From assembly GCA_963826535.1 (NCBI GenBank), contig CAWGXL010000011.1:192809-256808 (forward strand): DNA of 64,000 bases, in the 5' to 3' direction. Both the position numbers and the translations under genes were made by a program. This DNA is from an uncultured bacterium. Its GTDB lineage: Bacteria; Patescibacteriota; Microgenomatia; Levybacterales; UBA12049. Below are positions 18,469 to 56,143 of the stretch, in pieces (within the stretch, counting starts at the first letter, position 1; each line of letters begins with the position of its first letter). The notes beneath the pieces are model-generated. The model did not search any database and was not told the origin of the DNA. It was given only the letters and a program-made list of their open reading frames with translations.

Positions 18469-19947
18469 TTATATAGCAATAGAGGGATTTAGAATTTCTA
18501 CCGAATAATTGTAATCCGGCGGGCAGTGGATTTGAATATAGGAATTTATTGCCCGGGTATCGTAGTCAAATATTATTACTTTTGCACGATAGAGATGCTG
18601 ACAATTGAATTGGGACGTTCTTAGAATATAAAAGGGGACTTTTTCTAAATTGTATGCCTGGCGCATATGATTTAGATCTTTATAGACAAAGTAATTTCTT
18701 TCGGAAAGCAGGAGGATGTTGTTTTGCTTGATATTATTTATTTGCGCATCTTGTAGAGATTTTATTAGCAATGCGGTACCGGTATAACCGGAAATGTTAA
18801 AAACCCCGATTTGGCTTAGATGGAAGTTCAGTAAAAGAACTAAGAACAGTATAGGAATTATAAAATAGTTGGGTATTTTTTTTAGAGCATAGAACAATGC
18901 AATGCCAGCAAACGCCGCTCCAAATGGCAAGAAAAAAATTCCTCTCGTAGTGGGGGCATAGGCATAGGGGGAGGTAAAACCAATAATAACGCACGCGCTA
19001 ATGTAGGCTAACAAGAGAAAAAGATATTTACTCTTTCGCAAATGGAAAATTACAATAAAGGTTCCCAGTAGGGCGAATATTATTGTTACAACATCAAGAT
19101 AGGGGCCTGCAACAAATTGATTAAAGAGATAATCATAATTCTTGTAAAATAGCAGGAAGTTATGAAAAATATTCTTTAGGATTTGTGTATTGTCTGTAAA
19201 TTCCATATGTATAATTGTTTTTCCGGCAGGGCCGCCCAATGAAGATAATTGCAAAAGTGCCGGTAAGAGTAAAGATACATATCCGAGAATAAAAAAAGGG
19301 CTAAGGCGCAAGGCTTGCTTTATTGTTTTTCCAGCTAACAGGGGCAACAGGAACGGCCATATTATTAAGGGGAAAATCGGTCCGATATAGATATAGAATG
19401 AAAAGCCCAGCAATATACCAAGAATAAAAAAGTTTTTCTTTGAGGGGTGTTTGGCGCAGACAACCGAGTAATATGAACAAATGATAAGTAATGCAAGGGC
19501 TTGCGGCATATTCTTGCCGACTTTGAAGAAATTAGCAAGATAAAAAGAACATTGAAGAAGTATTGTGCTAAAAAGAGCAATTTCCGGATTAAATGATTTC
19601 TTCATCCATTTATAAAAGAAAATCGTTATTGGGATTATGAGGACGATATTGGATAGCCGCCAGGCAAAATTTGAAAATCCGAATAGTTGCAAAAACAATG
19701 CCTGATAGATGCTGGAAAGAGTGGTGTTTTGCGAGTAAACACCATTAAAATCAAAAGGGTTTACGAGAAAATTTTTCATAACGATTTCTTTGGCAAAAAT
19801 ATAAAATGGCCATTCATCACCAACAAAGGAAAATTTCCAGGAATTAATATTCCAACTGTAGTAAATAAGGGCAAGACATGTTGTGAGAAATAGGATTTTT
19901 GTATGAGTATGGGTGGAGAAAAATTTTTTTAGGGAAATCTTGTCCAT
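18469..19947 (-). CDS. GT-C fold membrane glycosyltransferase (ArnT/PMT-like, GT39/GT83-type)
   Basis: Polytopic. First-loop acidic motif VGDEWPFY. Paralogous to the four following genes. Confidence 0.5.
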   Translation of the reverse strand: MDKISLKKFFSTHTHTKILFLTTCLALIYYSWNINSWKFSFVGDEWPFYIFAKEIVMKNFLVNPFDFNGVYSQNTTLSSIYQALFLQLFGFSNFAWRLSNIVLIIPITIFFYKWMKKSFNPEIALFSTILLQCSFYLANFFKVGKNMPQALALLIICSYYSVVCAKHPSKKNFFILGILLGFSFYIYIGPIFPLIIWPFLLPLLAGKTIKQALRLSPFFILGYVSLLLPALLQLSSLGGPAGKTIIHMEFTDNTQILKNIFHNFLLFYKNYDYLFNQFVAGPYLDVVTIIFALLGTFIVIFHLRKSKYLFLLLAYISACVIIGFTSPYAYAPTTRGIFFLPFGAAFAGIALFYALKKIPNYFIIPILFLVLLLNFHLSQIGVFNISGYTGTALLIKSLQDAQINNIKQNNILLLSERNYFVYKDLNHMRQAYNLEKVPFYILRTSQFNCQHLYRAKVIIFDYDTRAINSYIQIHCPPDYNYSVEILNPSIAI

Positions 19948-19982
19948 GCTAATAAGTATAATTGATTTATTAATAAAATTAT

Positions 19983-21788
19983 ATGTATGATAAGTATTAC
20001 ATGCATTTATTTAAATCAAAATTTATATTTTGGATTCTAATTATAGTTAGTGTTATAGCTTACTTATACTCGATGGTGATCGTAAAAATAGACACAAGCT
20101 TTGATTATCGCTGGCTTGCTTTCTGGCTACACATTTCATCTGTTTTACTGCTTTTGGTTTGTTACGCATCTAAAAGTGTTTCAAGGCTTAAAATTAAAAA
20201 ACTATTTTCGGAAGCCGAGATAAATTCAATTCTTATAATTATCATTGTTTCTGTGAGTGTGAATTTTTTACTTCTTCCAATATATCCATTCGTCAGCATA
20301 GCTGATGATTTACGGGATAGTGGGTTTGATGCAATGAGGATAGCGTCGGGTGATATAAAAAATATTTTTGATTACGGTAACTATAACGGTTATGGCCTAA
20401 TTATTCCCATATTTTCAAGTTTTTTCTATTATATTTTTGGTAGTAGTGTATTAACATACCGTTTCCCTGCAGCTTTACTTTCGACAATAGATATTCTTCT
20501 TCTTTATTTTTTAATACGTATTATTATTAACAAACAAGCTGCATTTTGGGGCGCAATTATTCTTGTTACATTACCTCTTCATCTTTACTTTGCGCGTACA
20601 CACGTAATTATGGCGTTCAATTTTTTTTGGATGCCTGTAATATTATTATTATTTTATAAACTGCTCAAGAAACACCGCCTTATAGATTATATTTTCTTAG
20701 GAGCGATTATAGGTTTTATATCCGGCTTCCATGCAGCGATTCGTTCTGTTGCATGCCTTGTACTTCTTATCATTCTCTTTTTAGATTTTAGAGAGATAAT
20801 ATTCAGAAAATTAATGCCTGACGAGAAAATACGTATCCGCCTGGTAAAAATAATTCTTTTGTTGCTCTTTGTATTTATAGGATTTGGCCCCCGTCTATTA
20901 TTTACAGGGCCGCAGAATTTCTTTCATACAAGCAGACTTCCTCTGGAAAATAAAATAGAAGCTGATTTGCCAATTAAATCAGATGATATAAATACAATTA
21001 AAGGTAACTATATTAAATCTCTAATGGGTTATTTTTATGAGCCGGTAACATTTTTTTATCACGACCCTAAACCAATCCTCTCTCCAATTCTGGCAATATT
21101 TTTTGTTCTGGGTATTGGTTATTCAGTTTTTGTATTAAAAAATTATTTTTTAAATATATTAATATTCATAATACTTGCGATACCGTTTCTCAATAGCGCT
21201 ATTACCGACTGGGTTAATGCAGATCACAGATTAAGTCCGATTTTCTCAATAGTCGCTATATTTGTCGCAATCGGTATAACATTTTGTTTAAATTTAATAA
21301 AAAATAAGATTTGGAAATATATTTTTGCTTCGTTTATAATTTTCTATATATCATGGCAGGCTATAATTTTTTACACTAATCAACCCGCAAATCTAAAATA
21401 TAAATTTCAAGACTATGTCTTAACACACGTCTTACGTTTTCTGCAAAATGAAAAAATATACCAGGCATCTCCTTTAATGAATTTGCAATATATGAGTTCA
21501 GCTAATCCACCCGGGCAAATTTGCCTCTTAGTGTCGTCTGCCAATTATAAATATTTCCATGGTAATGTTGGCATAATTGAGCAAAAAAAATATTTATTGC
21601 CAAGTGCCGATATCCAATTTGCCCCGGGTGATTCTATAAATGATAACGAGATATATATTGTGAGAAGTAGTTGCTCAGGAAAGGGCAACACACGCAGGTC
21701 CAATCAGACTTATACCCTTTCGTGTGTGTTGGGAAATAAATTTACCTGTCCTTTGAATTATATAGGGGACATAAAATTCCATTATTAA
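19983..21788 (+). CDS. GT-C fold membrane glycosyltransferase (ArnT/PMT-like)
   Basis: Polytopic 601 aa. Loop-1 acidic motif SIADDLRDSGFD. Family context. Confidence 0.45.
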   Translation: MYDKYYMHLFKSKFIFWILIIVSVIAYLYSMVIVKIDTSFDYRWLAFWLHISSVLLLLVCYASKSVSRLKIKKLFSEAEINSILIIIIVSVSVNFLLLPIYPFVSIADDLRDSGFDAMRIASGDIKNIFDYGNYNGYGLIIPIFSSFFYYIFGSSVLTYRFPAALLSTIDILLLYFLIRIIINKQAAFWGAIILVTLPLHLYFARTHVIMAFNFFWMPVILLLFYKLLKKHRLIDYIFLGAIIGFISGFHAAIRSVACLVLLIILFLDFREIIFRKLMPDEKIRIRLVKIILLLLFVFIGFGPRLLFTGPQNFFHTSRLPLENKIEADLPIKSDDINTIKGNYIKSLMGYFYEPVTFFYHDPKPILSPILAIFFVLGIGYSVFVLKNYFLNILIFIILAIPFLNSAITDWVNADHRLSPIFSIVAIFVAIGITFCLNLIKNKIWKYIFASFIIFYISWQAIIFYTNQPANLKYKFQDYVLTHVLRFLQNEKIYQASPLMNLQYMSSANPPGQICLLVSSANYKYFHGNVGIIEQKKYLLPSADIQFAPGDSINDNEIYIVRSSCSGKGNTRRSNQTYTLSCVLGNKFTCPLNYIGDIKFHY

Positions 21789-21799
21789 AAAGGCTGTAT

Positions 21800-24130
21800 T
21801 TATTGAACGATGTAGGTGACTTTTCCCTCAGATGAAACGTTTAGCCAATAAAATTTCCGGGTTGGGTAGGCTGAGCGCATTTGGGCAATAGCAACTTGAG
21901 AAGGAGCATACGCAAAGAGGACGTTACTCTGCCCCTTTGGATCATTCATTGCAGCAAGGATATGATAAAACAAATTCCAATCCTGAGTTAAGACAATCGC
22001 GTTCTGTAATTTATTATTGTATACGGGCGTCGTATCTAGTTTTGAATAATTAGGAAGTTCTAAAAAATGATAGTAAAGCTGCAAATGTCTTGGCGTATAA
22101 TACACTAGATTATAGAGTAAAAAGATAGCCACTAACAAAATTACCGGCCAAGCTAACTTGATTTGTTTTAGTTTTACAGTGGAAATGACCCAATTATTAA
22201 GCACAATTATTCCACGTGCAGTTAAGAACACGAGAAATGGCAATACTTCAAAGAGATGACGCGGCCCAATAGCAATACCATGATAATAAAATGGTATCTG
22301 TGTTACAAAAGTCATGATGGCGATTATTAAGCACAGATAGTCAAAGCGGTTAGCTTTTTGAAGTAAAAAAGGGATAGCAATAAATCCTAAGGTAAATGCA
22401 TATGGCCATCCGAATAGTTCGAATTGTATGCTTGTCATTAATTGATCAAGACTTACCAATCCGGCTGCGACTGTGTGCTCCCCAAAATGTCCGATATTTT
22501 TGCCAAATCCATATATATCCGATGAGGAATGCAACACTTTTGGCGTGAGGAACATATTGCCTGTCTGAAGATGATTATATAAAAGATATAAAAAAACAAA
22601 AAAGAAAAAAATAATTGTATATATTCCCACAATACGTATCAGCTTTTTTTTACTTATAACTAAACTTGCATTACTATGCGTTGACTTTTTAATGACTGGG
22701 AAAAAATGGATAAGAAAAATGCCGACAGCACAAATTCCTCCTATAACTATTGCTGCAAGCTCACGTGTCAAAAAGGCAAACCCTAAACATGCTGCGGATA
22801 ATATTATATAACGATATAGTATTTCGCCTGATTTTGCTTTTCTGCAAAATACCTGCCAAAAATAACTCATGAAGACCAGGAAAAACAGGCAAACAGTATG
22901 ACTTAAATATGATGCAGCCTGGAAACTATAAAAAGGTGAGAAGGCTACAAGCCCAAGGGCTAATATACCTGTTGGCCTGCCAAACCATTCTTTGGCTAAA
23001 AGATATATTCCAAAAAGGGATGCTACTCCCAGAACCGGCGTAACAATCCAGGGCATGTGTATTAACATTCCAAGAGCAAGGATCAGTGAGGTTCCGGGCG
23101 GGAAAATCATAAACCAATGATTGTCATGCATAACCATAAATGGGCTTCTCAACCAAATGTATTCCGGTGTTGCCGGAAGAGAAAGCTGGCCAAGAGCAAA
23201 TATCTTTGCTTGTGAGTAATACGCCAGCTCATCCAGAATGTGCGGCATAGATTGGAATTCATATACGGAGATAAAAAGCGTATATATTAAAGATGCCATT
23301 AATAAAATAATTACAAAAACAGTGAACAATTGGGAGGACTTGCGTAATAAGCGGTTGGTATATTTTCCTAAATGGTTAGTGTTAAATACATGGGAGACAA
23401 TTGGCCTGCCTATATAGGCTGCCAGTAAACAGCCAAGGCAGAGCAGAAAGCTAACCAGTAATATCCGGGCCAGTGAAATAAGATTCTCTCCGAGGAAGGG
23501 GCCGGGATCTCTGGGAAAGTATGTTTGATAAATATTTTGGTCCTCTCTGTCCGGAATAGAGGCAAATACTTTTAAAGTTCTATCATTCCGATTTAGAGAT
23601 ACCTTATAACTTGTTTTATTATTGGTAATAAACTGCAGGCTTATTTCTTTTACAGGATAGAACAGAGAGATTTGAATGTCTGTAAATTTTGAAATTTCCG
23701 GAAGTGTAATTGGAGAATCTGTGGCCGGTGATTGTGCATAATATATTTCTTTATGTGTCTCAGCATTAAAAACACGTAAATCCTGCCATTTATTGTAAGC
23801 ACTACCTCCCCTCATCCAATCAGATAGTTTGTAATAAAAAGAATTAGAAAGTGACTGAAAGTATGCAGCTTCATAATTGTGATTAGTTATTGAGTCTGAT
23901 CCATCAATTTGAAATTCATGTGCCAGCGGGTCCGGCTTTTCTAAAAATAATTGTGTTGTACTTGCCGCATCAAATGGAAGAGGAATTGTATTCCCATCAA
24001 TTAATAACCGTGCATTATTTTGTCTTATCTCTAATTTAAAATGTATAGCCGCAAAAGAAACACCGATACTGTACAAAATTAGAATAAAAATAAATACGCT
24101 TGTGAATATGATAATTTTCTTCATTACCAA
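21800..24130 (-). CDS. GT-C fold membrane glycosyltransferase (ArnT/PMT-like) with a large N-terminal extracytoplasmic domain
   Basis: 776 aa. N-terminal about 200 aa soluble after a signal anchor. Then a TM core with an HILDELAYY (DE) motif. Confidence 0.5.
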   Translation of the reverse strand: MVMKKIIIFTSVFIFILILYSIGVSFAAIHFKLEIRQNNARLLIDGNTIPLPFDAASTTQLFLEKPDPLAHEFQIDGSDSITNHNYEAAYFQSLSNSFYYKLSDWMRGGSAYNKWQDLRVFNAETHKEIYYAQSPATDSPITLPEISKFTDIQISLFYPVKEISLQFITNNKTSYKVSLNRNDRTLKVFASIPDREDQNIYQTYFPRDPGPFLGENLISLARILLVSFLLCLGCLLAAYIGRPIVSHVFNTNHLGKYTNRLLRKSSQLFTVFVIILLMASLIYTLFISVYEFQSMPHILDELAYYSQAKIFALGQLSLPATPEYIWLRSPFMVMHDNHWFMIFPPGTSLILALGMLIHMPWIVTPVLGVASLFGIYLLAKEWFGRPTGILALGLVAFSPFYSFQAASYLSHTVCLFFLVFMSYFWQVFCRKAKSGEILYRYIILSAACLGFAFLTRELAAIVIGGICAVGIFLIHFFPVIKKSTHSNASLVISKKKLIRIVGIYTIIFFFFVFLYLLYNHLQTGNMFLTPKVLHSSSDIYGFGKNIGHFGEHTVAAGLVSLDQLMTSIQFELFGWPYAFTLGFIAIPFLLQKANRFDYLCLIIAIMTFVTQIPFYYHGIAIGPRHLFEVLPFLVFLTARGIIVLNNWVISTVKLKQIKLAWPVILLVAIFLLYNLVYYTPRHLQLYYHFLELPNYSKLDTTPVYNNKLQNAIVLTQDWNLFYHILAAMNDPKGQSNVLFAYAPSQVAIAQMRSAYPTRKFYWLNVSSEGKVTYIVQ

Positions 24131-25947
24131 TTAAATGTGGGTTGAACTTTTTGGAAGATCATTATTTTGGGATGATCGTATACGGTAAAGGATTCATCGG
24201 CTTCTGAATCATTTATGGGAATCTTGAGAATTGGGAGGGTCGGATAGTTTGTGAACTCCGCAATTTTTTGGAAGCCTAATGAGCCATTAAATAGATCCTG
24301 ATAATATTCAGCAGTCAAAGTATAGCATTTGTCCTGGGGTAGGGACTTGCAGTCGGTTAATTTTTGCAAGGGGGTGTAGAGTCTATTGGAAGCAATGATA
24401 ATAAAGTCAGTTTGGGCAAGTATTTGATTGATATTTTGCCATTTTGCCGGCGTGTCAGGATCGTACAGCGGCAGAGTCACAATCCGATAATTTTGACCTC
24501 CGTATATGGGTACCGGATCATCCCAATGTTCCTGGGCTATAACTTTTCCGGCGGGGATGAATTCATTGATCCAAAGGGTCGCAGTTGTGCGTGGGTTAGG
24601 TACGGTGTAGGTACGGATAAAACTTATTGGCCAGATTAAAATAAGGGTAAATGGTATGGCGTAAAGGGTAAAGCGTAATAAACGGTTTTTTAGGTAATGT
24701 TTGAGATATTTCAGGAACATATATGCAGCCAGTGCGCCAAATATACACAACATGGGATAGAGAGGGAGCATATAGCGCATAAAGCCAATTGCGAATCTTC
24801 CGACTATTAAAAAATATGCAAGGAAGAAGATGGCTATAATAACTTCCAATGCCCATTTTCCCTGCCTCATAGGAGGAATGGCATGCAACTTGCGGGAAAA
24901 CGCATGCCGGAAAAAATAAATAGTGCCTATAAAGGAAATGATCCCCAACAGTGGCCCGAGACCCCAGAGGATGATGTTTTTAATTTCATAAAGATATGGT
25001 ATTTTACCTACATATTGAAGCGTATAGGGGAAGGTAAAGGCACTGCGCGTCATTTGTGATTGTTCCAGAGTTTGTCTCCAAAATTCCGGGAAATCAATTA
25101 TCGCGTATGGCGAGCAAATGGCAAAGACGAGGAAGGCTGCAATACTTATTATAAACGAAAAAGAAAAAACATGATTTATAGAAGCCGGAAGGCGAGATAA
25201 CCACAGACGCGGTTTGTGCGGCTGTCTGAGGATAAGCAAAGCAAAAGGCGCGATTAATGCCGCCGCGATCGGGAAGAACAGAACAAGAGCGCTTGTTTTG
25301 GTTGCCAATGCAAGACCTAAAAAAATACCTATAAAAAGGGCGTGTTTTATGGTTGGTTTTTCGTAAAATAAAATAAGCCGGTATAAAGCTGCCAGGATGA
25401 AAAATGTCAGAAGTGTATCTACCGCATAGAAATGAGAAAGCTGGATGGGTAGAACGCTTACCGCATAGAAAAAGGAGGCTATATATCCGACTTTTGCCCC
25501 AAATAGTTTTCTGCCAAGATAAAAGACCAAAGCTAACGTTCCCAGATCGAACAATGCTGAGGTGAACCGACCCGCAATATTGATCAAGTCATAACCGGTA
25601 AAAAACGGATTGAATGCTCCAAGTCCTTCACCTATAAATTTCAATAGATAAAACGGGAAGCTGCCGTAGGCGAAAAAATGCGGATTAAATGGGCTATCCG
25701 GAGAGAGAAAAGAATTCAGATCAGCGGGAAATTGTATTTTTACAACTGTCATAATAATTGCCCGTTCGTCCGGATGTAAATGATATCCCTGATCCCAATT
25801 GAGACCATAGAAGCGAAAAAGTGCTCCGAATAATAAAATAAGCAGCAATAGTTTTTTTTGTTGGTTTAATTTCATGTTTAAATTAATTTTTAATTTTTTC
25901 ATAGATATATACAACCGGCCTGTCAAAGACATTTGCCGTTTCTTCAA
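24124..25947 (-). CDS. GT-C fold membrane glycosyltransferase (ArnT/PMT-like)
   Basis: LNWDQGYHLHPDER matches the loop-1 DE motif of GT39/GT83. 607 aa polytopic. Clear paralog of 25883-27625. Confidence 0.6.
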   Translation of the reverse strand: MKKRQMSLTGRLYISMKKLKINLNMKLNQQKKLLLLILLFGALFRFYGLNWDQGYHLHPDERAIIMTVVKIQFPADLNSFLSPDSPFNPHFFAYGSFPFYLLKFIGEGLGAFNPFFTGYDLINIAGRFTSALFDLGTLALVFYLGRKLFGAKVGYIASFFYAVSVLPIQLSHFYAVDTLLTFFILAALYRLILFYEKPTIKHALFIGIFLGLALATKTSALVLFFPIAAALIAPFALLILRQPHKPRLWLSRLPASINHVFSFSFIISIAAFLVFAICSPYAIIDFPEFWRQTLEQSQMTRSAFTFPYTLQYVGKIPYLYEIKNIILWGLGPLLGIISFIGTIYFFRHAFSRKLHAIPPMRQGKWALEVIIAIFFLAYFLIVGRFAIGFMRYMLPLYPMLCIFGALAAYMFLKYLKHYLKNRLLRFTLYAIPFTLILIWPISFIRTYTVPNPRTTATLWINEFIPAGKVIAQEHWDDPVPIYGGQNYRIVTLPLYDPDTPAKWQNINQILAQTDFIIIASNRLYTPLQKLTDCKSLPQDKCYTLTAEYYQDLFNGSLGFQKIAEFTNYPTLPILKIPINDSEADESFTVYDHPKIMIFQKVQPTFNW

Positions 25948-27625
25948 AACTAAAGACCGGACTATTTAAATAGGTAATCCTACAAAAAATATCACATGGC
26001 GTAGCGTATATTTTTTGAAACCCGTTCATATGAGCGAATAATGCTGAATAAAAGGAGTACGCGAGGGGATAAGTTATTGGATCGTTAAGGCGAGTCTTCA
26101 GGATACGCTGGCTGGGCAGAATAATGTAATCTGAAACTGCCAATTGCTGTGCCAATCTGTCGGTCGTGTATTCAGGTGAATTATTATCTAAATCATAAAA
26201 GTTAAAGAGGGTTATATTAGGAAACGAATCATTAAATGGCGTGATGCCCATGTCAAACACTTCACTGAGGATTGCGGCATTTGATGGGACGTGTTGCAAG
26301 GCATAAATTTTAGCGGCGATGCGAGTGTCTGTTTGGATATAAGCAGTAATAAAATAGGAGATGGAAAATATGATGGTAATACAAACAAAAATCCCCCCAA
26401 CCCCCTTAAATAAAGGAGGTGTCCGTAGGACGGGAGATTTGCTCATTGCAATAAATTCTGAAAGCGAGAGGCTCATAATCAGGTACATAAATGGTAGTGT
26501 TGGTACCATATAGCGGATCCATTTTGCGTAAAGAAATGCCTGGGAAAGAAATAGTATTAAGAAGAAAATATTAAGCATTAAGTATTTGCTATTCTTTGTT
26601 TTTATGGAAATAAAAATTAAGTAAAAGAATGATGGTATAAATAAACATGTTAATAACGGATTAAGAAGGAAGGGATAAATGTGAAGAAACTGAAAAACGA
26701 CGGGGACTACGTTTTTAAACTCTCCTGTATAGAAAACAGACAGCGTACCCAAGGCTACGCGTGATTCATAAAACATGCTGCCATAGAACTCAGAGAAGTC
26801 GAAATAGACGAAGGGATTGGTGATAAAAAAGACAAGAATGGATACTGCGCAAAACAGGATGCAATTGCGGATAAAGTTAAAAATGCGGCGCACGCGATGC
26901 TCTTTATTTATAGGATAAAAATGAGAAAGGAAAAGCGCTAAAACCGGAAGCGGCAATAATGCTATGTGGGATACTTTGGTTGCAATTGCTGCGCCAAAGA
27001 CTAAAGCTGTAACGAGAAGAGGCAGGAAATCGAGCCTCCGCAAGAGACGGAGAGTAAACAGAAAAAGTAAAACACTTAGCAAGGTCAGCCACATTTCGAA
27101 GGTGCCGAAATGGGCATATTGAATTAAACCTGTACTAAATGTCGCAAAAAAAGCTGCTATCAGGCCGGTCTGATTACTCAAATCCCCCGCCTTCGGCACC
27201 CCCTTTAATAAAGGGGGTTGGGGGGATTTATTGGCACTTAGATATATTTTCTTTCCGATGAAAAACATAAGCGGGATTAGCAAGAGGGAAAATAAGGCGG
27301 AAAAAAATCTGCTAATTAAAATTGCTAGCTCGAAAGACACGGTAAAAATTGTCATATCATCTGCGGATAATTGAAAGGACAGGGGAAGAGATAAATAATT
27401 AACAAAAACGCCGGTGAGGTATATCGTGTAAATCGGCAATGATCCGTAGGCAAAAAAATGCGGGTTCAACTGGTCGGGGAATTTCAGTCCGGAGACTGCG
27501 GAGGCAATATTGCGTTCGTCAGGATGGAAATAAAATGGCGCACCCCAGTTGAGATTATAGAACCGAAGGATTGCTCCAATAATTATCAGAAGACACAGCA
27601 AGAAAAGAATATTTTTTTTCTTCAT
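25883..27625 (-). CDS. GT-C fold membrane glycosyltransferase (ArnT/PMT-like) carrying two in-frame palindromic-element insertions
   Basis: NLNWGAPFYFHPDER aligns residue by residue with the upstream paralog. Extra segments SANKSPQPPLLKGVPKAGDLSNQT and SPVLRTPPLFKGVGG are encoded by GC-rich palindromes. Confidence 0.6.
   Translation of the reverse strand: MKKKNILFLLCLLIIIGAILRFYNLNWGAPFYFHPDERNIASAVSGLKFPDQLNPHFFAYGSLPIYTIYLTGVFVNYLSLPLSFQLSADDMTIFTVSFELAILISRFFSALFSLLLIPLMFFIGKKIYLSANKSPQPPLLKGVPKAGDLSNQTGLIAAFFATFSTGLIQYAHFGTFEMWLTLLSVLLFLFTLRLLRRLDFLPLLVTALVFGAAIATKVSHIALLPLPVLALFLSHFYPINKEHRVRRIFNFIRNCILFCAVSILVFFITNPFVYFDFSEFYGSMFYESRVALGTLSVFYTGEFKNVVPVVFQFLHIYPFLLNPLLTCLFIPSFFYLIFISIKTKNSKYLMLNIFFLILFLSQAFLYAKWIRYMVPTLPFMYLIMSLSLSEFIAMSKSPVLRTPPLFKGVGGIFVCITIIFSISYFITAYIQTDTRIAAKIYALQHVPSNAAILSEVFDMGITPFNDSFPNITLFNFYDLDNNSPEYTTDRLAQQLAVSDYIILPSQRILKTRLNDPITYPLAYSFYSALFAHMNGFQKIYATPCDIFCRITYLNSPVFSFEETANVFDRPVVYIYEKIKN
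26388..26434. repeat. GC-rich miniature palindromic element, copy B (plus orientation), inside the GT-C CDS
   Basis: AAATCCCCCCAACCCCCTTAAATAAAGGAGGTGTCCGTAGGACGGG. Outer stem, a CCCCC/GGAGG hairpin and a CCGT-AGG-ACGG hairpin. Confidence 0.5.
27181..27229. repeat. GC-rich miniature palindromic element, copy A (inverted orientation), inside the same CDS
   Basis: Reverse complement AAATCCCCCCAACCCCCTTTATTAAAGGGGGTGCCGAAGGCGGGGGATTT matches copy B over the first about 33 nt. Substitutions in the small 3' hairpin preserve pairing. Confidence 0.5.
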
Positions 27626-27674: not shown

Positions 27675-30323
27675 TCAAAAGAGAGGGAATATATCAAAAA
27701 AGCTAGCGTCCGGGTTCTCGCCCCTACATTCTGGTTCCGGAGTGGATTTGTCGTCCCAGCAAGGGATATTCTGCGAATCTTTATTGTCTTTTACCCAAGT
27801 AGACGTTTGCTCGGGTTTCTCACCCTTGCATTCTGGTTCCGGAGTAGCTTTGTTGTCCCAGCAAGGGATATTCTGCGAATCTTTATTGTCTTTTACCCAA
27901 TTGTCCTTGACAGGCAGTGCGGGTTGATCGGGTTGCGCAGGCGGCTGGGGTTTATTCACTTCACATTCCTGTTTGGGTGTTTCAAGGTCGTCCCAACATG
28001 TGCCGCCTGCTCCGGATGGATCCGGCTTTTGTACCCAATTTCCTCCGGCGGGTTTTGCAGGTTGCGCAGGCTTGTCAGGTTGCGGCTTGACAGGATCCGC
28101 GGGTGGTACGTATCCCTTCTGACCAGGAGCGCGTAGGTTGCCCGGGGGATCCGATTCGCATTCTTTTACTTCAGTGGTTGTTGTGTCGTCCCAGCAGCCA
28201 CCTTCATATTCTACATAACTTGGTTTCGGCTGGCCGTCGGGACCGGGCTGAAACTCGCTGGCGGAGCAACCCGTTATATTTAAGGCGGTTCCGGCACTAT
28301 CAATACTTTTCCGTGCGGCAGTACATGAAGCTTCAGTATCACCGCACTTTTCTGCTGATGTATTTCCATCCTTATTCGTATAAGAGAAGCACCATCGTGT
28401 TTGTTTGGGAGGAAGTGCTTGATCGCAAGGCACAACTTTATTCACACCATTTATTTCCTTATTACACCATTTCGCCTCTGGCTCACTTTTGGTACTAGCC
28501 GGTATCTGGCAACGCGGGTCGTTGGGATCCTTGCAAATGCCGGGTATTTTTAAGATATCAACTACGATTAGCTGAAAAATAACAAAGGAGAAAATAATAA
28601 ATATAAGTCCAACTATAGCCGCGATTAACTGATCACGTCCCTGTTGTACTTGTTCCGGTTTGCCTGATGAGGTAATTAGTTTATAGCCGGCAAAAATCAT
28701 AAGAAGCAGCGCTATTCCTCCAGCGAAACCGAGGAGGATAGTAAAGAATCTTAATACGAACGCGGCCGGATCGGTGGGGATATCCTTTGTGTCATCCGTA
28801 TCGCCGGAAAAGGAAGTACGGATTTTTTTACACCCCCCTGTCTCCAACCACTCGACACATGGGGGAGAAGGATTAATAATAGTAGTCGGTTTTGGAACAG
28901 TGGTCGGCTCAATGTATTGATTCGCGGTTTCTACATCAACAATACCCTGATCTACAAGTTTGGCTATAGTGTTGTCATCCAGGCCGGTAAGTCCAAACTT
29001 TTTCAGGACGCCTTTTACGTTATCTATAACTGATGGATCGCTGGCAACTCCGCCCGGTTGGCCGCAACCTCCCGATGACGGAGCGCTGCTGTTTCCGCTT
29101 GGTTGCGATGTGTTCCCGGTTGGGGCTTGTGCTTCCTTCCTACATAATGTAACCGTATGATTGACTGACTTGAATGCTTCTTTTTTATCATCGCACAGCG
29201 ACTGAGTAGCGTCGCACTGCACGCCTTTCACACCCCAGCGATTTGTCGCTGTAAAACAAAACAACTCAGAGACCGATGGCTTAGTGGATGTGCCTTCGCA
29301 TTCGTTAATATTCGGAGTCAGAATGTTATCGCAATCGCTGGGCGGACTGGTGGTGTCGGCCAAAACGTCTCCTCCCCTAGGCCCGGTTTGGGTGCCTTGC
29401 ACGCCGGTTGAGTTTTGTGCGGGTTGTTCAACACAACCTGTGACCGTATGCTTGGCTACCTCAAATACCTTTCTCATACTAATGCAATCATCTTTAGTAG
29501 CGGAGCACTGAGGACCTTGTGCGCCAATCTCGGGTTGAGCTGTTGAATCGAAGCACCATTTTGGTTTGGCTCCACTTGGCGGAGTGTCCGAGCATTTTTC
29601 GACAATATTCGGAGTAACAGTACTATCGCATTTTTCATCTCCGCCTTCTGGCAAATTTTCTCCGCTTGGCGGCGGTTTGGCCGCGCCGGAGCCGGATTCG
29701 CCTCCACAAGTTATTGCCTTCATAATACCTTCTGGACTAAAAATACCTAAATCTTTGAGTTTGCCTACTGTACTGGAGGGTATCTTAACGCCAAACTGAC
29801 CCAGGAGAGAATGTATTGTGTCCTCTTGAGTAAAAATTCCCTGAAGCCCGCCCTGCAATATCCCTCCGAGACCGAGCGCACCCCCCACTTCGTCTACTAA
29901 AATATCTTTTAAACCCACGCCATTTAAAAATTTATCCATTATCGGCGATAATGACCCAAGACCGGCGTATCCCAAGATGCCCTTTGTTATAGCGCCATAG
30001 TTTTCCTGAGCTATGAAGTCATAAGTCTCTCTACCTACAGAATAGATTTCATGACCTGTTTTAACTGTTTCAATAATCCCCATCAATTGCTCGCTTTGCA
30101 GTACATAATCCTTTGCTTGTTTTACTAACCCCTGGGCTTGCAGTGCTAATTGCCCGATATCTTCTGTTAACCATTGAGCATTTGCCCGTTGAGGATATAA
30201 AAAATAAGAAGCTGCGGTTGAAAAAACTACCAAGGACAAGATAATTGCTATAAATAACTTTTTCACTCCTTCCAGCATGACAAAAAATGATAAAATTTGC
30301 AAGAGGAGTGCGAATCTTGACAA
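27675..30323 (-). CDS. Large secreted/membrane-anchored Cys-rich repeat protein with an internal VirB2/TrbC-pilin-like double-TM hairpin
   Basis: Signal peptide. Two 70-aa 8-Cys modules. Central segment FFTILLGFAGGIALLLMIFAGYKLITSSGKPEQVQQGRDQLIAAIVGLIFIIFSFVIFQLIVV has two hydrophobic helices split by a short basic loop. C-terminal tandem repeats WVKDNKDSQNIPCWD-K-TPEPEC. Nucleotide tandem repeat of about 90 bp at 27736-27905. Confidence 0.5.
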   Translation of the reverse strand: MSRFALLLQILSFFVMLEGVKKLFIAIILSLVVFSTAASYFLYPQRANAQWLTEDIGQLALQAQGLVKQAKDYVLQSEQLMGIIETVKTGHEIYSVGRETYDFIAQENYGAITKGILGYAGLGSLSPIMDKFLNGVGLKDILVDEVGGALGLGGILQGGLQGIFTQEDTIHSLLGQFGVKIPSSTVGKLKDLGIFSPEGIMKAITCGGESGSGAAKPPPSGENLPEGGDEKCDSTVTPNIVEKCSDTPPSGAKPKWCFDSTAQPEIGAQGPQCSATKDDCISMRKVFEVAKHTVTGCVEQPAQNSTGVQGTQTGPRGGDVLADTTSPPSDCDNILTPNINECEGTSTKPSVSELFCFTATNRWGVKGVQCDATQSLCDDKKEAFKSVNHTVTLCRKEAQAPTGNTSQPSGNSSAPSSGGCGQPGGVASDPSVIDNVKGVLKKFGLTGLDDNTIAKLVDQGIVDVETANQYIEPTTVPKPTTIINPSPPCVEWLETGGCKKIRTSFSGDTDDTKDIPTDPAAFVLRFFTILLGFAGGIALLLMIFAGYKLITSSGKPEQVQQGRDQLIAAIVGLIFIIFSFVIFQLIVVDILKIPGICKDPNDPRCQIPASTKSEPEAKWCNKEINGVNKVVPCDQALPPKQTRWCFSYTNKDGNTSAEKCGDTEASCTAARKSIDSAGTALNITGCSASEFQPGPDGQPKPSYVEYEGGCWDDTTTTEVKECESDPPGNLRAPGQKGYVPPADPVKPQPDKPAQPAKPAGGNWVQKPDPSGAGGTCWDDLETPKQECEVNKPQPPAQPDQPALPVKDNWVKDNKDSQNIPCWDNKATPEPECKGEKPEQTSTWVKDNKDSQNIPCWDDKSTPEPECRGENPDASFFDIFPLF

Positions 30324-30363: not shown

Positions 30364-30921
30364 ATGATGAACAGGAAAAAGCTAATAGTTGGCGGAATTA
30401 TCGGAGTTATTATAGTATTTATTTTGGCGACTGTATTGCTGACGCCGCAAGAAAAACCTCCATTGCCCGCAGGAAATCAGATAAGTCCGACCGCGGGACA
30501 ACTTATCCGGGAAAACGCACCGTTGGATTACGATGAGTTTTTAAGCAGCGGAAGGTCGGAGATCTGCACTTTCGCGGTGACACAGGAAAATCAAAATGTT
30601 AGCGGGCTCGAGGTTCCATCTAAAATATCAACAGGAACCATCTTCGCGGCAAATGGCAAGATAAAAGGTGAATTTACGATGACTACCAGAGACGGGACAC
30701 TCCAACAGCATGTACTTGTTGATGCGTATACAGCATATTTATGGAATAATGTGAATAATGGCGGAGTTAAGTTTCTTGTGGGAAAGGAATCGCCGGATAA
30801 GTTAATCAAACCGCCACTGGTTTACAATTGTAAAAGCTGGACGCCAAATAATTCTGTATTCCAACTTCCGGTGGGTGTAGTATTTACCGAAATTACAGAT
30901 TTTAACGCGAGCACTCCCTGA
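30364..30921 (+). CDS. Hypothetical membrane-anchored/secreted protein
   Basis: N-terminal TM LIVGGIIGVIIVFILATVLL followed by a soluble domain. No motif recognised. Confidence 0.3.
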   Translation: MMNRKKLIVGGIIGVIIVFILATVLLTPQEKPPLPAGNQISPTAGQLIRENAPLDYDEFLSSGRSEICTFAVTQENQNVSGLEVPSKISTGTIFAANGKIKGEFTMTTRDGTLQQHVLVDAYTAYLWNNVNNGGVKFLVGKESPDKLIKPPLVYNCKSWTPNNSVFQLPVGVVFTEITDFNASTP

Positions 30922-30953: not shown

Positions 30954-32351
30954 TTAAATATCTCCGTTGAACCAGAAGTCTGCGGGGGTGGGATAGAGCA
31001 GGCTCTGTTGCATCTCCAGATTCTTCACCTCAAGATAGTTCTTTATCAAACTCGCAGCAAAAACTCCACTTTCTACTAAAATTTTATCTTTATTCAAACT
31101 TTCCAATGTCTCAAAAAGTGTGTGAGGTGTTTGCTTTAAGCTTCCTTTTTCCCAAATATTCTCGTCGTACGGACCGAAGCCTAATTTTACCGGGTCTAAT
31201 TTCTTCTTAATACCATCAATTCCGAAAACGAGTAGCGCCGGGAAGGCAAGATAAGGGTTAGCTGCAGGGTCGGGACAGCGGAATTCGAGACGTTTTCCTT
31301 TCTCCATATTTTTATAATATACCGGGATTCTAATGGCAGCGCTTCTATTTCTTTTGGAGAAGGCTATCGCGGTTGGGGCTTCAAAATGAGGCACAAGCCG
31401 GCGATAAGAATTCAGAGTCGGGTTGGTAATTGCCAGAAGTGTGCGGATATTTGTGAGAAGAGCGGCAAGATAGGAAAGAGCCGATTTTGATAACTCTCCA
31501 TATCCCTTGGGATCGAAAAACACATTTTTTCCATTTTTAAAGATACTCTGATTGGTATGCATTCCGGAACCGTTATCTCCAAAGATGGGCTTGGGTAAAA
31601 ATGTAGCATGCATGCCATACTTTTTGGCAAGATTGCGGGCGACGTATTTATATTTCATAACTTTATCCGCCATATTCACCAGACTGTCGAATCGCATATC
31701 AATTTCTACTTGTCCGGCAGTCGCGACTTCATGGTGGTGCACCTCAATTGGAACACCGATTGACTCGAGGATTGAAGTCATTTCCGATCGAAAGACTTGA
31801 AGTTTGTCCTGAGGGGGGACAGGAAAATAGCCGGTTTTGGGAAGGATTTTGCTACCGTCGCTTTCCTCATCCGGAAAATCCGGAATTTCGTCACTTCTAA
31901 TTTTTATATATGAATCGTGTGAACCTAAGTGAACAGAGAGTTTATTTAATACAAAAAATTCTATCTCCGGTCCCCAGTAGGAGACATCGCCAATGCCTGT
32001 TTTTTTCAAATAAATTTCGGCCTTTTTCGCAGTGAAGCGCGGATCTCTTTCAAAAGGTCCTGCGTCACCGGGATTGTAGACGTCGCAAATACAGACAAGT
32101 GTTTTTTCGAAGAAAGGATCTATAAAAAGTGTAGCTAGATCGGGCCTTAGAAGCATGTCGCTTTCAAATATACTGCAGAATCCTTTGATGCTGGAGCCGT
32201 CAAATCCGTAACCCTTTTCAATTCCCTGCATTGAAAATTCATGGGCGGTAAGGGTCATATGCTGCCAAACTCCACGCAGATCAATAAAGCGAAGGTCTAC
32301 AAACTGAATGTCACTTGATTTAATTAATGCAAAAGCTTTTTTAGGATCCAT
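30954..32351 (-). CDS. glnA: Glutamine synthetase type I
   Basis: 465 aa. N-terminal beta-grasp DIQFVDLRFIDLRGVWQHMT. Catalytic-domain motifs (e.g. GMHTNQS-like, NPYLAFPALL). Confidence 0.85.
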   Translation of the reverse strand: MDPKKAFALIKSSDIQFVDLRFIDLRGVWQHMTLTAHEFSMQGIEKGYGFDGSSIKGFCSIFESDMLLRPDLATLFIDPFFEKTLVCICDVYNPGDAGPFERDPRFTAKKAEIYLKKTGIGDVSYWGPEIEFFVLNKLSVHLGSHDSYIKIRSDEIPDFPDEESDGSKILPKTGYFPVPPQDKLQVFRSEMTSILESIGVPIEVHHHEVATAGQVEIDMRFDSLVNMADKVMKYKYVARNLAKKYGMHATFLPKPIFGDNGSGMHTNQSIFKNGKNVFFDPKGYGELSKSALSYLAALLTNIRTLLAITNPTLNSYRRLVPHFEAPTAIAFSKRNRSAAIRIPVYYKNMEKGKRLEFRCPDPAANPYLAFPALLVFGIDGIKKKLDPVKLGFGPYDENIWEKGSLKQTPHTLFETLESLNKDKILVESGVFAASLIKNYLEVKNLEMQQSLLYPTPADFWFNGDI

Positions 32352-35395: not shown

Positions 35396-36106
35396 CTAAC
35401 TATGGGATAGTATCATATCCCCCACTTGTATGTCAAGAGGGGTGGCAATAAGCAAACCTGCTTCATGGCCTTTTTCAACCTTGGAAACCGGATTCTTGCC
35501 TACCCGGAGGGAGCCGATTGACGCTTCGCCCAGCACAGATTCCCCACGCATGATACGAATTCTGTCTCCACGCGCCACCCTTCCGGCGTTAACTTGAACC
35601 CCAAAAGCCACGGTTTTCTCAAAGGGAAATTTGGCAAGTACTTTGGCTTTACCAAAAATTTGTTCCATTTGAGCCTGTAATTTCCCCTCAAGCGCGTCTT
35701 TTATTTCGTCAAGCATCTCATAGATAATTGAATAGTTACGCAGAAGTACTTTTTCAGTCATGGCTAGCTTGAGGATTTCCGGACGTATTTTGGTATTAAA
35801 ACTCAGGACAATACTACCGGTTGATTTGGCGAGCAAAACATCAGCTTCAGATACTTCGCCGGTTTTCTGCATAATAATCTTTATTTTTTTAGGTAGCGCA
35901 TAACAGATCGCTTCGAGTGATCCTTTGGTGTCGGCCGCAAGGATTACAGAAAGGGTTATTTCTTCATCTTTTTTTTGATATACCGATTCTCTTTTTAGGG
36001 GTTGCGCCTGTGCCTGAGAAGCCTGGACTAAAGCTGTATTGGATTTTGAACTAATTATACTTCCAACAGCCGGAACATTCTTCGAGACCGAGTATTTCAA
36101 CCGCAT
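35396..36106 (-). CDS. infB: Translation initiation factor IF-2, C-terminal half (domains C1-C2). Separated from the G-domain half by a frameshift.
   Basis: SVILAADTKGSLEAICYAL matches IF-2 (VNIVLKADVQGSVEAI). NVPAVGS follows the EILGL motif of IF-2 domain II. Confidence 0.7.
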   Translation of the reverse strand: MRLKYSVSKNVPAVGSIISSKSNTALVQASQAQAQPLKRESVYQKKDEEITLSVILAADTKGSLEAICYALPKKIKIIMQKTGEVSEADVLLAKSTGSIVLSFNTKIRPEILKLAMTEKVLLRNYSIIYEMLDEIKDALEGKLQAQMEQIFGKAKVLAKFPFEKTVAFGVQVNAGRVARGDRIRIMRGESVLGEASIGSLRVGKNPVSKVEKGHEAGLLIATPLDIQVGDMILSHS

Positions 36107-36884
36107 CTCCGACTGTACTTTCTTTTAGTTGTTGGCCGCGGTCATTTATAATTGTACGAATTTTGCCGCTAATTGCATCTGTTTGAATTTCGTCTCTGAT
36201 TTTTATAGTTCCGTTTTTAATAACAATTGTTGCCCTAGGTCCGACCCGGGGATCAAGCCTGCTTTCAATAACAATTGCCTTCAACTGTCCATTTGCGGAT
36301 ATTTTATTCTCCTCAACAACGGGCGCATGCATATCAAATACTAACAATATAAGATCGAGAAGCTCTTTGATATTGGAATTTGTTTTCGCTGAAACAGCGA
36401 TTGCAGGAATTTCGCCACCGTATTCTTCCAGGGTTATTTGCTCTTTTAGAAGTTCCTGCTTAACTTTATCTAAATTTTTGGTGGCTAAATCTGCTTTGGT
36501 GATCACAACAATAAATCGGGTGTTGGTGCCTCTAAGTAGTTCTATACTCTCTTTTGTTTGTGGTTTCAGTCCTTCATTTGAGGCTACGACTAACAGTGCG
36601 AGGTCAGCAACCTGAGCTCCCCTACCGCGCATATGCGAGAAAGCTTCATGGCCTGGGGTATCAATAAAAGTGACTGAACGTTTATGGCCTTCATGAATTA
36701 TATCTATTGATGATGCTCCAATTTTTTGAGTGATCCCACCGACCTCGCGTTCGGCGATTGATGTTTTTCTAATCGCGTCAAGGAGGGTAGTCTTGCCATG
36801 ATCAACATGACCAAGTACGGCTACAACCGGCGGAAATTGAAGCCCAGAAGCTTTGACCTGTTTAACGTCTTTTGTTTTTGCCAT
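36051..36884 (-). CDS. infB: Translation initiation factor IF-2, N-terminal G-domain half. Ends at a stop created by an apparent frameshift.
   Basis: PPVVAVLGHVDHGKTTLLDAIR (G1). DTPGHEAF (G3). NKADL-like TKADL (G4). Ends GDAVEILGLEECSGCWKYN*. Confidence 0.75.
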   Translation of the reverse strand: MAKTKDVKQVKASGLQFPPVVAVLGHVDHGKTTLLDAIRKTSIAEREVGGITQKIGASSIDIIHEGHKRSVTFIDTPGHEAFSHMRGRGAQVADLALLVVASNEGLKPQTKESIELLRGTNTRFIVVITKADLATKNLDKVKQELLKEQITLEEYGGEIPAIAVSAKTNSNIKELLDLILLVFDMHAPVVEENKISANGQLKAIVIESRLDPRVGPRATIVIKNGTIKIRDEIQTDAISGKIRTIINDRGQQLKESTVGDAVEILGLEECSGCWKYN

Positions 36885-49312: not shown

Positions 49313-52300
49313 TTATGCACCAACAAAGCTTGTTGAATCATGATAGTGCTCATAAACAAAGTTATATATTTCTACTCCTTTACTATCACAGTCTTGTTTT
49401 GAATAAGTCGGTTCAGGTAGTGAATCATATAGAATATCAGAAATTGTTGTTTTAACTCCTGCGCGAGCTATCTCTTTTTCTCTCCAATCAATGACAAGCT
49501 TTTCATGTTTAAGTTTTGCTAAAAGATCTTTTGCAATCTTTTTTACTTTTTCTCGCTCATCAGGATTCAAGTTATCCTTTTGTAGAAGATCAAAAATTGC
49601 GAGTTCCTCTTCAGTCAAATTTTCTTTTACTGCTCTTTGTTCTTCTTCGCTTAACTCTTTCGCAAGTTCAACGAGGTCATCGAAAAGCTGATCGATATCA
49701 TGAGCTCCGGTGTTATACACATTTAGCATTGCCAAAAGTCTGTCCATGAACTTTGCACGTATTTTATTTTTTTTCATCATATCGATAATCTTTTTTTCCA
49801 GATCATCTCTTAGTGCCTCAACTTGTAAGTTTTTATTTTCAATCTTGTAAAAGAATTCATGTAAAGCATCGACATCGAGTGCGCTTAAATCCTTGAGTCT
49901 TTTATAATGTGGGACAACGTATTCACCAGCTCTAATTGACTTATCCAATAATAATTCCAAGTCTCTTTTTACCGGTGAAGTATCAATACTTCGAGCGCCA
50001 ACGTCTCTTATGCGCGAAGCAATTATACGAATTGCGGTTACCTCATTGTAATAATCTTCTGCTGAAGGATCAGGTAAAACAGATTTGTAGGCAGAATAAA
50101 GGTCTGCTGACAGGTTTAAAAATTCATTCTTTCTTTTTTGATCCACTAAAATTTGGTTGGCGTATTTATCGATAAGCAATAATTTCTGTTCATTAGGTGA
50201 TTTAAGCAAAACTTCAATATCTATTTTTAATCCTTTAAGCATTTCTTTAGTTTGCTTTAAAATATTTAACAAATCTTTCAAAAGCTCATCTTTACTTTTG
50301 ATTATTTCATCGTCTCCTGACTTGGTCGCAGCATAAAGGGCTAATGCTTTTTCAACGTTCTTAAAGACTCCAATATAATCAACTATCATGCCGTTTGTTT
50401 TCCCTTCGGATACCCGATTTGCTCTCGCAATTGCTTGCATCAAGGTATGATTTTTTAAAGGCTTGTCAAGATAAAGTGTTGAAAGCGTCGGGACATCAAA
50501 ACCGGTTAGCCACATTGCGCAAACAAATACAATTTTTAGATTGCTATCATCTTTCTTGAATTCTTCTTCAAGGTTTTCATTCTGTATTCGAGCTCGAAGC
50601 GGTCTCATTTCTATTTCAAACGGTTCAAGATCAGCAATTTCATTCTGTGATTGACTTACGACGACAGCCATATCTATTTTTTCAAGTTTTTCAATTTCTT
50701 CACGAATTTTCTCTTGCTCAAAATCATTCTCTGCTCTTGATAAATCCAACCGCAATTTAGCTAAATGCCTATCCCATTCAGCTTTTACTTTTGTATACAT
50801 ACGCACTGTTGTTTTTTTATCGATTGAGACGACCATTGCTTTTCCCTGATAACCCCGTCCGACAAAATGCTGCACAATATCCCTTGCTATCGCATTTAAT
50901 CTGTCTTCACGGGTTATCAAATGATAGAAAGTTGAAAATTCCTGTTCTACCTTTTCCTCTTCCTCATCGTTCATTTCGTAGTAATTCATTATTTTGCCAA
51001 GTTCTACTTCAAGCTGTGGGTTGATATTCTCAAGTTTGGCTACGCGATTTTCATAATATAAAGGAACCGTTGACCCATCTTTTACTGATTGACCAAAATT
51101 ATATACGGACACATATTCTCCAAAAGTACTCTTTGTTTTTTCTTCACCACGACTTAAAAGTGGAGTTCCTGTAAAACCAATAAATGAAGCATTTGGTAGT
51201 GCTTTTCTCATGTTCTGGGCGTAAGTATCGTATTGGCTTCTATGAGCCTCATCCGTCATAACAATAACATCATCCCGATCTGACACCGCTCCTGGGATAT
51301 CCTGAAACTTCTGAATAGTCGTAAAAATTTGTCTGTGATCCTCTTTTAGTAATAATTTTAAATCTTTAATTGAATCAGCCCTTACATGTTTTTCATAAAC
51401 TGCACCCACGTTGGCAAAATTTTTATATGCTTGGCCATCGAGTTGTTCGCGATCAGTAACAATAATAAAAGTAAAATTCCCAGGAATTTTTCTGAATACT
51501 TTTTGTGAGAGATAAACCATAGCAAAAGATTTTCCAGATCCCTGTGTATGCCAAAAAACTCCAAGTTTTCCGTTGAGTTCTTTTCTCTTTATAACTCTTT
51601 CAAATGCACGATTGACTCCGTAGTACTGAAAATACCTGGGAACTATTTTTTTAGTTTCTCCAAGTGATTCATCATAAAGAATAAAGTTTTCAAATATATC
51701 AAGAAGTCTTTTTTTGTCACAAATTCCTTTGACAAGAGTAGCTAAATCTTTTTTTGTCTCATCTTTTTCAGATTCAACTTTTTTCCACTCGTTAAAATAT
51801 TCAAAAGGGGATGTTAGGGAACCAAATTTATTCTCAATGCCATTGGAAATTACGATTCCCATGTTGTACCAGAAGAGGTGTGGAATGGTGTCTTTATAAT
51901 CCCGGATATTGTCTTTATACGCATCTACCAAACTTTTATGAGAGGCTTTTAGCTCTAATAGAAGGAGGGGAATACCATTAACAAAAAGAACTACATCTGT
52001 TCGTCTCGTGTACATCTCGCCCACCACCCATAGCTGGGAAACACAAAGAAAATTATTGTTTTCAGGGATTTCAAAATCAAAAAACTTCACATTCTCAATT
52101 TTTGAATTTCCATCTTGTGTTTTTATGTTTACGCTGAATCCATCTTTTAATAGTTTGTAGACTTCTTGGTTGGCTTTAACTAAAGTTGTATTTGATCTGT
52201 CTCTGGTTATCTCAGCAACTGACTGTTGCAAGGCTTTTTCAGGTAATGATGGGTTTATTTTGGTTAGAGCAGGGAGTAAATACTTTTTGAGGATTACTTC

Positions 52301-55096: not shown

Positions 55097-55098
55097 TG

Positions 55099-56094: not shown

Positions 56095-56143
56095 AGTTAC
56101 CTTTCTTATTTTACTTTTCAGGCCAAAAGTATAATATGGATTT

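Follow-up and report, generated by a model that had tools for sequence, protein, structure and literature searches.

The question raised by this locus is whether a large, cysteine-rich bacterial protein built around a pilin-like membrane hairpin belongs to a secretion-system filament, contacts a host cell by other means, or simply sits in the membrane as a surface protein. The gene lies at positions 27675..30323 of the minus strand in a window of 64,000 nucleotides, the whole stretch analyzed here, from an uncultured bacterium of the Patescibacteriota (contig CAWGXL010000011.1). It encodes a protein with a T4SS_pilin domain (PF18895), a family of type IV secretion system (T4SS) pilins. On balance, the protein is probably, though not by much, a passenger-bearing VirB2-like member of this T4SS pilin family that is exported by the Sec pathway, is docked to a T4SS or built into a filament in low copy or at the tip, and serves in adhesin-like contact with a host. 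Most likely it is a surface contact protein and an unusually large variant of a known, abundant pilin family, and from the sequence we infer a function as an adhesin or filament subunit.

The reading frame is real and spans 882 aa from a TTG codon at 30323, as the earlier sequence-only reading of this DNA had proposed; its product is probably 867 aa long, from an ATG codon at 30278. The public copy of the protein (P0001, on an NCBI/ENA contig of 894,453 bp) is 100% identical and is called from this ATG, which is Met-16 of the longer form, and in alignments the N-termini of orthologues begin at the equivalent position. The shorter product is therefore likely to be the correct one. Residue numbers below refer to the 882-aa form unless stated (subtract 15 for the 867-aa form), and all features of the gene and its two neighbors are on the minus strand. 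The GC content of the gene is 0.47 versus about 0.39 elsewhere, and its GC content at third codon positions (GC3) is 0.42. A foreign origin was considered for this high GC content and ruled out, since GC3 equals that of the neighboring genes. The additional GC falls in the first and second codon positions and thus reflects a Gly/Pro/Ala-rich composition, with no sign of foreign origin.

The central element of the protein is a VirB2-like helical hairpin at aa 519-590 (28554..28769), identified by Pfam, hydropathy, and AlphaFold2 (AF2), in which helix 1 and helix 2 are joined by the short, Lys/Arg-containing loop SSGKPEQVQQGRDQ, predicted to be cytoplasmic. The segment originally singled out as pilin-like is found verbatim at aa 526-588. 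PF18895 scores 29.3 bits against the 882-aa form and 30.8 bits against the 867-aa form, both above its gathering score of 26.6, and aligns aa 526-586 with model positions 12-71 of 71. NCBIfam model NF045849, which describes pilin-like proteins of Mycoplasma integrative and conjugative elements (Mbov_0395 family), matches aa 526-587 with 31.4 bits (E=1.1e-7; model positions 16-77 of 80) and also matches seven of eight orthologues (best E=5.5e-9). These are pilin-like proteins of wall-less or monoderm T4SSs of the mating-pair-formation FATA (MPF-FATA) type; the score is below the equivalog cut-off of 40, and the size and passengers of the present protein differ from theirs.

The hairpin is the larger part of a module of about 120 aa that starts with a Cys pair (C489 and C498) and a small three-stranded sheet, placed at 28776..28859 by alignment and the AF2 model. 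The proline and two cysteines ahead of the hairpin are nearly invariant among 148-150 relatives. An AF2 model of aa 418-626, built on 148 sequences, has a mean predicted local distance difference test (pLDDT) score of 81 and consists of three short helices, the small sheet bearing the Cys pair (its strands being model residues 72-75, 81-85, and 97-99), and a two-helix hairpin. The hairpin helices span 33 and 35 residues (model residues 102-134 and 139-173) with a pLDDT of about 90. In an hhalign comparison with seven real VirB2/TrbC sequences, the module aligned over 56 columns with P=9.7e-4 and a probability of 22%, versus 0.058 for a cross-control against VirB5, and the alignment corresponds to a common TDPxxF motif. 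The protein resembles the TrbC/VirB2 pilins of diderms, such as that of the Agrobacterium tumefaciens T-pilus (8exh), in its long leader, TDPxxF motif before helix 1, two hydrophobic helices, short basic loop, and predicted external placement of both termini.

The module defines a large family. An exhaustive phmmer search over 1.84 billion cluster representatives returned 9,509 representatives at E<=1e-3, of which 2,484 also reach E<=1e-10. Their common region covers aa ~475-596 (460-581 in the 867-aa numbering) and contains the P-C...C pair, the TDPxxF motif, and the two helices, with 50-70% identity in the hairpin between representatives clustered at 50%. The best 150 relatives have a median length of 387 aa and a median of 18 Cys; in most of them the module is at the very C-terminus, and in 132 of 149 it is preceded by more than 100 aa. 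The present protein is alone among these 150 in extending more than 200 aa beyond the hairpin. PF18895 was found in all 116 relatives scanned, and their passengers are mostly without a Pfam match, the matches being PG_binding_1 (three relatives), Kelch with DUF2341 (one), and Peptidase_C39_2 (one). One further relative, P0118 (820 aa), contains eight tandem VirB2-like hairpins in a single polypeptide (eight matched stretches) and may be described as a 'poly-pilin'.

Many of these relatives are linked to T4SS genes. A metagenome scan with the module yielded 80 loci, and small pilin genes follow the long gene in 20 of the 35 strong-module genes that have at least 1.5 kb downstream. There are typically three small genes, encoding about 105, 140, and 105 aa. 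This four-gene array recurs in L012, L022, L030, L032, L036, L043, L044, L050, L054, L059, L061-L063, L068, L069, L081, L082, L084, L088, and L089; within it, the highly conserved module of the long passenger-pilin scores 140-185 bits, and the three small, divergent pilins score 30-65 bits. Where the contig is long enough, PrgI/VirB3-like and VirB4 genes follow the pilin array, and VirB4 is downstream in eight metagenome loci (L012 and seven others). The order in L012 is a long pilin, three small PF18895 pilins, PrgI (VirB3-like), a P-loop_TraG/AAA_10 ATPase, and a protein that matches SLT weakly, under the cut-off. The sequence-only reading had allowed that its hairpin might score only as generic transmembrane helices; PF18895 above its gathering score here, its presence in every relative scanned, and the T4SS-linked relatives that head pilin arrays together indicate that it is more than a generic transmembrane pair.

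Three hydrophobic stretches are present by hydropathy, at aa ~20-40, 525-548, and 565-587. The first is preceded by KK and followed by PQRANA|QW, which by inspection has the look of a Sec signal; the corresponding signal peptide, MLEGVKKLFIAIILSLVVFSTAASYFLYPQRANA, is predicted from hydropathy and sequence at 30177..30278, with cleavage probably after ANA. Orthologues retain the KK n-region, the hydrophobic core, and the terminal PQ(K/R)A(E/N)A, in agreement with the signal peptide first proposed. The predicted topology is in-out-in-out. None of the 32 Cys residues lies in the predicted membrane helices or their loop; 16 are found on each side of the hairpin, and all 16+16 are on the predicted outside. 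This arrangement fits the earlier proposal of a pilin-like module fused to large extracellular, disulfide-rich domains.

The same N-terminus bears on two other possibilities: that the protein belongs to the pilins of type IV pili or of competence, or that it is a membrane protein of other descent with a chance resemblance to pilins. Competence had been mentioned when the sequence was first read, two-helix hairpins are a low-complexity fold, and Foldseek matches to the module at E>1 include opsins and needle proteins. However, there is no class III (prepilin peptidase) signal in the N-terminus MLEGVKKLFIAIILSLVVF, which has no G|F/M-T-L-x-E motif, and no type IV pilus family matched the 882-aa protein in Pfam or NCBIfam scans. 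Type IV pilus and competence pilins have a class III signal and a single N-terminal helix, whereas the hydrophobic hairpin here has two helices and is central. Together with the PF18895 score above its curated cut-off, the thousands of homologues that share the module at E<=1e-10, and relatives linked to VirB4, this leaves the competence proposal without support and makes either version of this alternative highly improbable.

The passengers on either side of the pilin module are modular. Behind the leader is an N-domain, delimited by orthologue alignments at aa 50-205 (29709..30176), in which a helical stretch is followed by a conserved Gly-rich region with the consensus GILGxYGLGxLSPIMDKxLxGxGLKDLLxDEVGGxIGxGGxLxGGLxG. 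The Gly/Leu-rich region had been recognized at the outset, and no other part of the N-domain is as well conserved in the orthologues; the domain itself was found to be specific to a small orthologue group. An AF2 model of aa 50-207 from eight sequences is all-helical and unreliable (pLDDT 47). The last ~40 aa of the N-domain are repeated in a 'mid' unit of three short helices at aa 430-471 (28911..29036; AF2 pLDDT ~90), as detected by phmmer between 28911-29036 and 29730-29850 (aa 430-471 versus ~158-198). The same duplication is present in P0004, P0007, and P0061.

Three Cys modules of about 66 aa, with six Cys each, were identified in place of the two 70-aa modules with eight Cys initially described. 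M1 (aa 232-297; 29433..29630) and M2 (aa 331-394; 29142..29333) are on the N-terminal side of the hairpin, and M3 (aa 620-686; 28266..28466) is on the C-terminal side. M2 is a repeat of M1 (score 107, z=15 versus shuffles), and M3 follows the M1/M2 pattern (M1/M3 z=5.5 versus shuffles), which reads C-x10-12-C-x11-13-C-x13-15-C-x6-C-x16-18-C. Directly after the hairpin is the motif KIPGICKDPNDPRC (28509..28550), which is common to orthologues with a Cys-rich C-terminal tail (P0003-P0006 and L002).

The C-terminal region contains four CWD..EC loops. Loop 0 (aa 710-722; 28158..28196) and loop 1 (aa 776-787; 27963..27998) were identified by sequence, and loops 2 (aa 821-832) and 3 (aa 855-866) lie in a tandem duplication of 102 bp (34 aa; WVKDNKDSQNIPCWD[ND]K[AS]TPEPEC) at 27711..27900, established by Tandem Repeats Finder and codon comparison. 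The program reports a period of 102, 1.9 copies, 92% matches, and a score of 329. The Cys motifs and C-terminal repeat of the original description are therefore present, while its period of about 90 bp and its position of 27736-27905 are replaced by these values. For modules M1-M3 and the CWD..EC repeats, no homologue was detected in a set of about 1,900 relatives and neighbor ORFs or in the best 150 of the exhaustive search, the sole exception being a single CWDNPATAEIEC at the C-terminus of P0004.

The orthologue group, defined by a common N-domain and mid unit, comprises P0002-P0007, P0061, and L002. Word-indexed searches, whether started from the whole protein, its N-domain, or the alignment of orthologues, recovered nothing beyond the protein itself and P0002; such a search scores only the 8,000 word-richest candidates, and P/Q/T-rich low-complexity words are suspected of crowding out relatives. 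A scan of genome contigs with N-domain patterns found one orthologue, L002, and a first metagenome scan with these patterns gave no match. The L002 contig (CAZLZN010000022.1) is titled 'uncultured Gammaproteobacteria bacterium', which is odd for a PF18895 passenger-pilin, and the label or binning may be wrong.

Orthologue P0002 is conserved in position as well as sequence. On its contig (L001), as in the window, glnA is directly upstream (30954..32351 in the window) and a GT-C-type membrane glycosyltransferase-like gene is downstream (25883..27625, with a weak PMT_2 match). The GlnA proteins are 86% identical and the GT-C proteins 55%, while the pilin module is 62% identical, the N-domain 37%, and the mid unit 24%. 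P0002 is 363 aa long and lacks both the 212-aa insert with M1 and M2 and the 286-aa C-terminal region. Because the insert and tail are absent from this positional orthologue, the passengers appear to evolve fast by insertion and duplication around a constrained hairpin.

P0002 also raises the possibility that the protein is a VirB5-VirB2 fusion. Its mature N-terminus, TIPVIDYSVLAKV (aa 32-70), matches PF07996 (VirB5) at 23.7 bits (E=7e-5), just under the gathering score of 24.7, over model positions 2-43 of 197. Weak NCBIfam matches to TrbJ (TIGR02780; 2/8, E=0.0019), VirB5 (TIGR02791; E=0.0038), and PRK13879 (E=0.012) occur in one or two of the eight orthologue members. The N-terminus of a real plasmid VirB5 from Bradyrhizobium, EIVFDPSVYARQFEQLTELKKQ, resembles that of P0005, EIVFDPAAFANLVKQLVELEKL, and when the N-domain is aligned with VirB5 by hhalign, P is 0.001 over 31 columns, versus 0.51 for the control. 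A small VirB5 hidden Markov model (HMM) ranked four distinct orthologues in the top 15 of 2,453 sequences.

According to this explanation, a VirB5/TrbJ-type minor pilin would make up the N-terminal part, and the hairpin would act as the first VirB2 layer. A tip of five copies would prime the assembly of the small pilins beneath it, and the Gly-rich N-terminal region would touch the host membrane or enter it. The likeness to VirB5/TrbJ concerns the first ~40 mature residues in the orthologue group and would extend to function, with a place at the far end of a VirB2 filament. In the model of the R388 T4SS, a VirB5 pentamer is pushed out atop growing VirB2 layers, and the N-terminal part of VirB5 resembles pore-formers (PMC9259494). 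However, no more than about 40 of the 197 model positions are matched, and every curated cut-off is missed. The window protein itself matches none of PF07996, TIGR02780, and TIGR02791, and its motif is degenerate (LTEDIGQL for IVFDPAAF). A profile search with the N-domain against the PDB found no VirB5, the N-domain model is unusable (pLDDT 47), the remainder of the N-domain is Gly-rich and unlike VirB5, and VirB5 has no membrane hairpin. A fusion of this kind is quite unlikely.

Several results weigh against the interpretation of the protein as a T4SS pilin-family member. PF04956 (TrbC/VirB2) has no match at E<=1 in the 882-aa protein, so the original assignment to a TrbC/VirB2-like hairpin holds for the PF18895 pilin profile and fails for PF04956. 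That model reaches 17.0 and 18.2 bits in orthologues P0003 and P0005, against a gathering score of 27.9, and is matched by three of the 116 relatives (best E=5.9e-4). A profile search (hmmsearch) with the module against PDB sequences found no pilin, and Foldseek found nothing significant, the archaeal conjugative pilus 8dfu being matched at E=3.5 with a TM(target) score of 0.61 and the T-pilus 8exh at E=8.7. Homology to solved VirB2 pilins therefore depends on weak profile evidence. Passengers are absent from VirB2, and a VirB2-type helical filament would have little room for about 750 aa of passenger on each of its subunits, which disfavors a role as major subunit.

The genomic setting points in the same direction. 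As the first reading had observed, there are no other T4SS genes in the window: none is among the Pfam matches listed for it (46 ORFs; the 25 commonest of 39 families, for 26 ORFs), and a patescibacterial VirB4 HMM has no match at E<=10. No small pilin genes or paralogues were found in the 64 kb, and no VirB2-type neighbors accompany the gene, which stands alone within the glnA/pilin-like/GT-C trio. T4SS genes and small pilin genes were likewise not found on the L001 and L002 contigs. Furthermore, the literature on patescibacterial T4SSs has not yet reported the observation of a pilus built of PF18895 proteins (PMC12102498, PMC10633639, PMC12857230).

The main rival explanation is that the hairpin is only the membrane anchor of a monoderm surface protein, needing neither a filament nor a T4SS, with passengers that would be wall-spanning or S-layer-associated adhesins or structural proteins. 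In its favor, the gene is solitary among housekeeping and glycosyltransferase genes, 15 of the 35 strong-module genes have no small pilins after them, the passengers are large and diverse, and large passengers on both termini would be sterically awkward for a helical pilus. However, hairpin conservation of 50-70%, and of 62% versus P0002, exceeds what a mere anchor needs while the passengers diverge freely, and many relatives head pilin arrays upstream of virB4. Proximity to virB4 is common in Patescibacteria and not obligatory, with pilin genes near virB4 in 1,135 of 1,948 assemblies (PMC12102498, PMC10633639, PMC12857230). A simple anchor is rather unlikely.

Other features of the window concern the surroundings of the gene. 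The GT-C-type gene downstream is one of five consecutive PMT_2-type (GT-C) membrane glycosyltransferase-like genes at 18469-27625. Since the GT-C gene is a conserved neighbor in L001, one speculative idea is that the adjacent enzyme glycosylates the S/T/P-rich linkers of the passengers. An ORF of 185 aa (30364-30921, plus strand) lies divergently between glnA and the pilin-like gene; it has an N-terminal hydrophobic segment and no Pfam match, and it is absent from L001. IF2 is seemingly split into overlapping ORFs at 35396-36106 and 36051-36884 (minus strand), with a GTP_EFTU part and an IF-2 domain part; a frameshift, a fault in the assembly, or decay into a pseudogene might account for this. 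A type I restriction-modification operon (hsdM, hsdS, hsdR) occupies 49313-57721 (minus strand), with RhuM-family and DUF4435/AAA_21 ATPase genes between the subunit genes. A 966-aa protein at 60087-62987 (minus strand) has an M23 peptidase match at aa 266-369 as its only Pfam match and, judging from this domain, may be a large secreted cell-wall hydrolase. Neither tRNA genes (ARAGORN) nor Rfam families at gathering score were found in window positions 1-64000.

As a passenger-bearing T4SS pilin-family member, the protein would be exported by Sec, with its signal peptide cut after ANA, and its hairpin would insert with the K/R-containing loop in the cytoplasm. The N-terminal region of 470 aa (N-domain, M1, M2, and mid unit) and the C-terminal region of 290 aa (M3 and the four CWD..EC loops) would then lie outside and be disulfide-bonded. 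In VirB2-type pili, both termini face outward, as in the F- and T-pilus structures, and passengers on either terminus would therefore be displayed. The very conserved hairpin may dock to a T4SS, or co-assemble in low copy or at the tip with small VirB2-like pilins, and the Cys-rich passengers would thereby be presented as a host-contact (adhesin) surface that may evolve fast through module insertion and tandem duplication.

Many Patescibacteria have VirB2-like pilins, whose genes form arrays close to virB4 and which Southlakia cannot do without (PMC12102498, PMC10633639, PMC12857230). The present protein and its relatives resemble the PF18895 pilins of the Southlakia epibionticum ML1 and Nanosynbacter lyticus TM7x arrays in the hairpin scoring above the gathering score, the Sec-type leader, and arrays, in relatives, upstream of PrgI/VirB3-like and VirB4 genes. 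Unlike the published pilins, which are treated as small, the present protein is 867-882 aa long, of which about 470 aa precede the hairpin and about 290 aa follow it. Its sub-family module is far more conserved than the ~25% identity reported within published arrays, and, in contrast to the array genes, it is encoded alone, beside glnA.

A broader but unlikely possibility is that the Cys-pair-plus-hairpin unit is a general 'pilus display' device of Patescibacteria-type T4SSs. In long passenger-pilins, this one included, a tip or adhesin domain would then be covalently joined to a VirB2-like subunit, the tip domain of this orthologue group being derived from VirB5/TrbJ. Such fusions would nucleate or cap a pilus of small pilins and decide which host surface the epibiont contacts. 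If true, this would supply the adhesin and VirB5 functions that are reported missing from the T4SS of the monoderm Patescibacteria type. No adhesin of the T4SS was reported in a survey that covered 3,035 genomes (PMC12102498).

A cultivated Saccharibacterium requires its T4SS genes and VirB2-like arrays to grow as an epibiont (PMC12102498, PMC10633639, PMC12857230). Pilins with passengers offer concrete candidates for the part of this system that touches the host. They combine an extremely conserved hairpin with fast-evolving, Cys-rich passengers, some of which appear to bind peptidoglycan or resemble lectins. The gene described here is an extreme example, with passengers on both termini and signs that modules were inserted, and a tandem duplication arose, only recently. 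Because P0002 is less than half its size, the two proteins form a natural comparison for the role that the extra modules may play.

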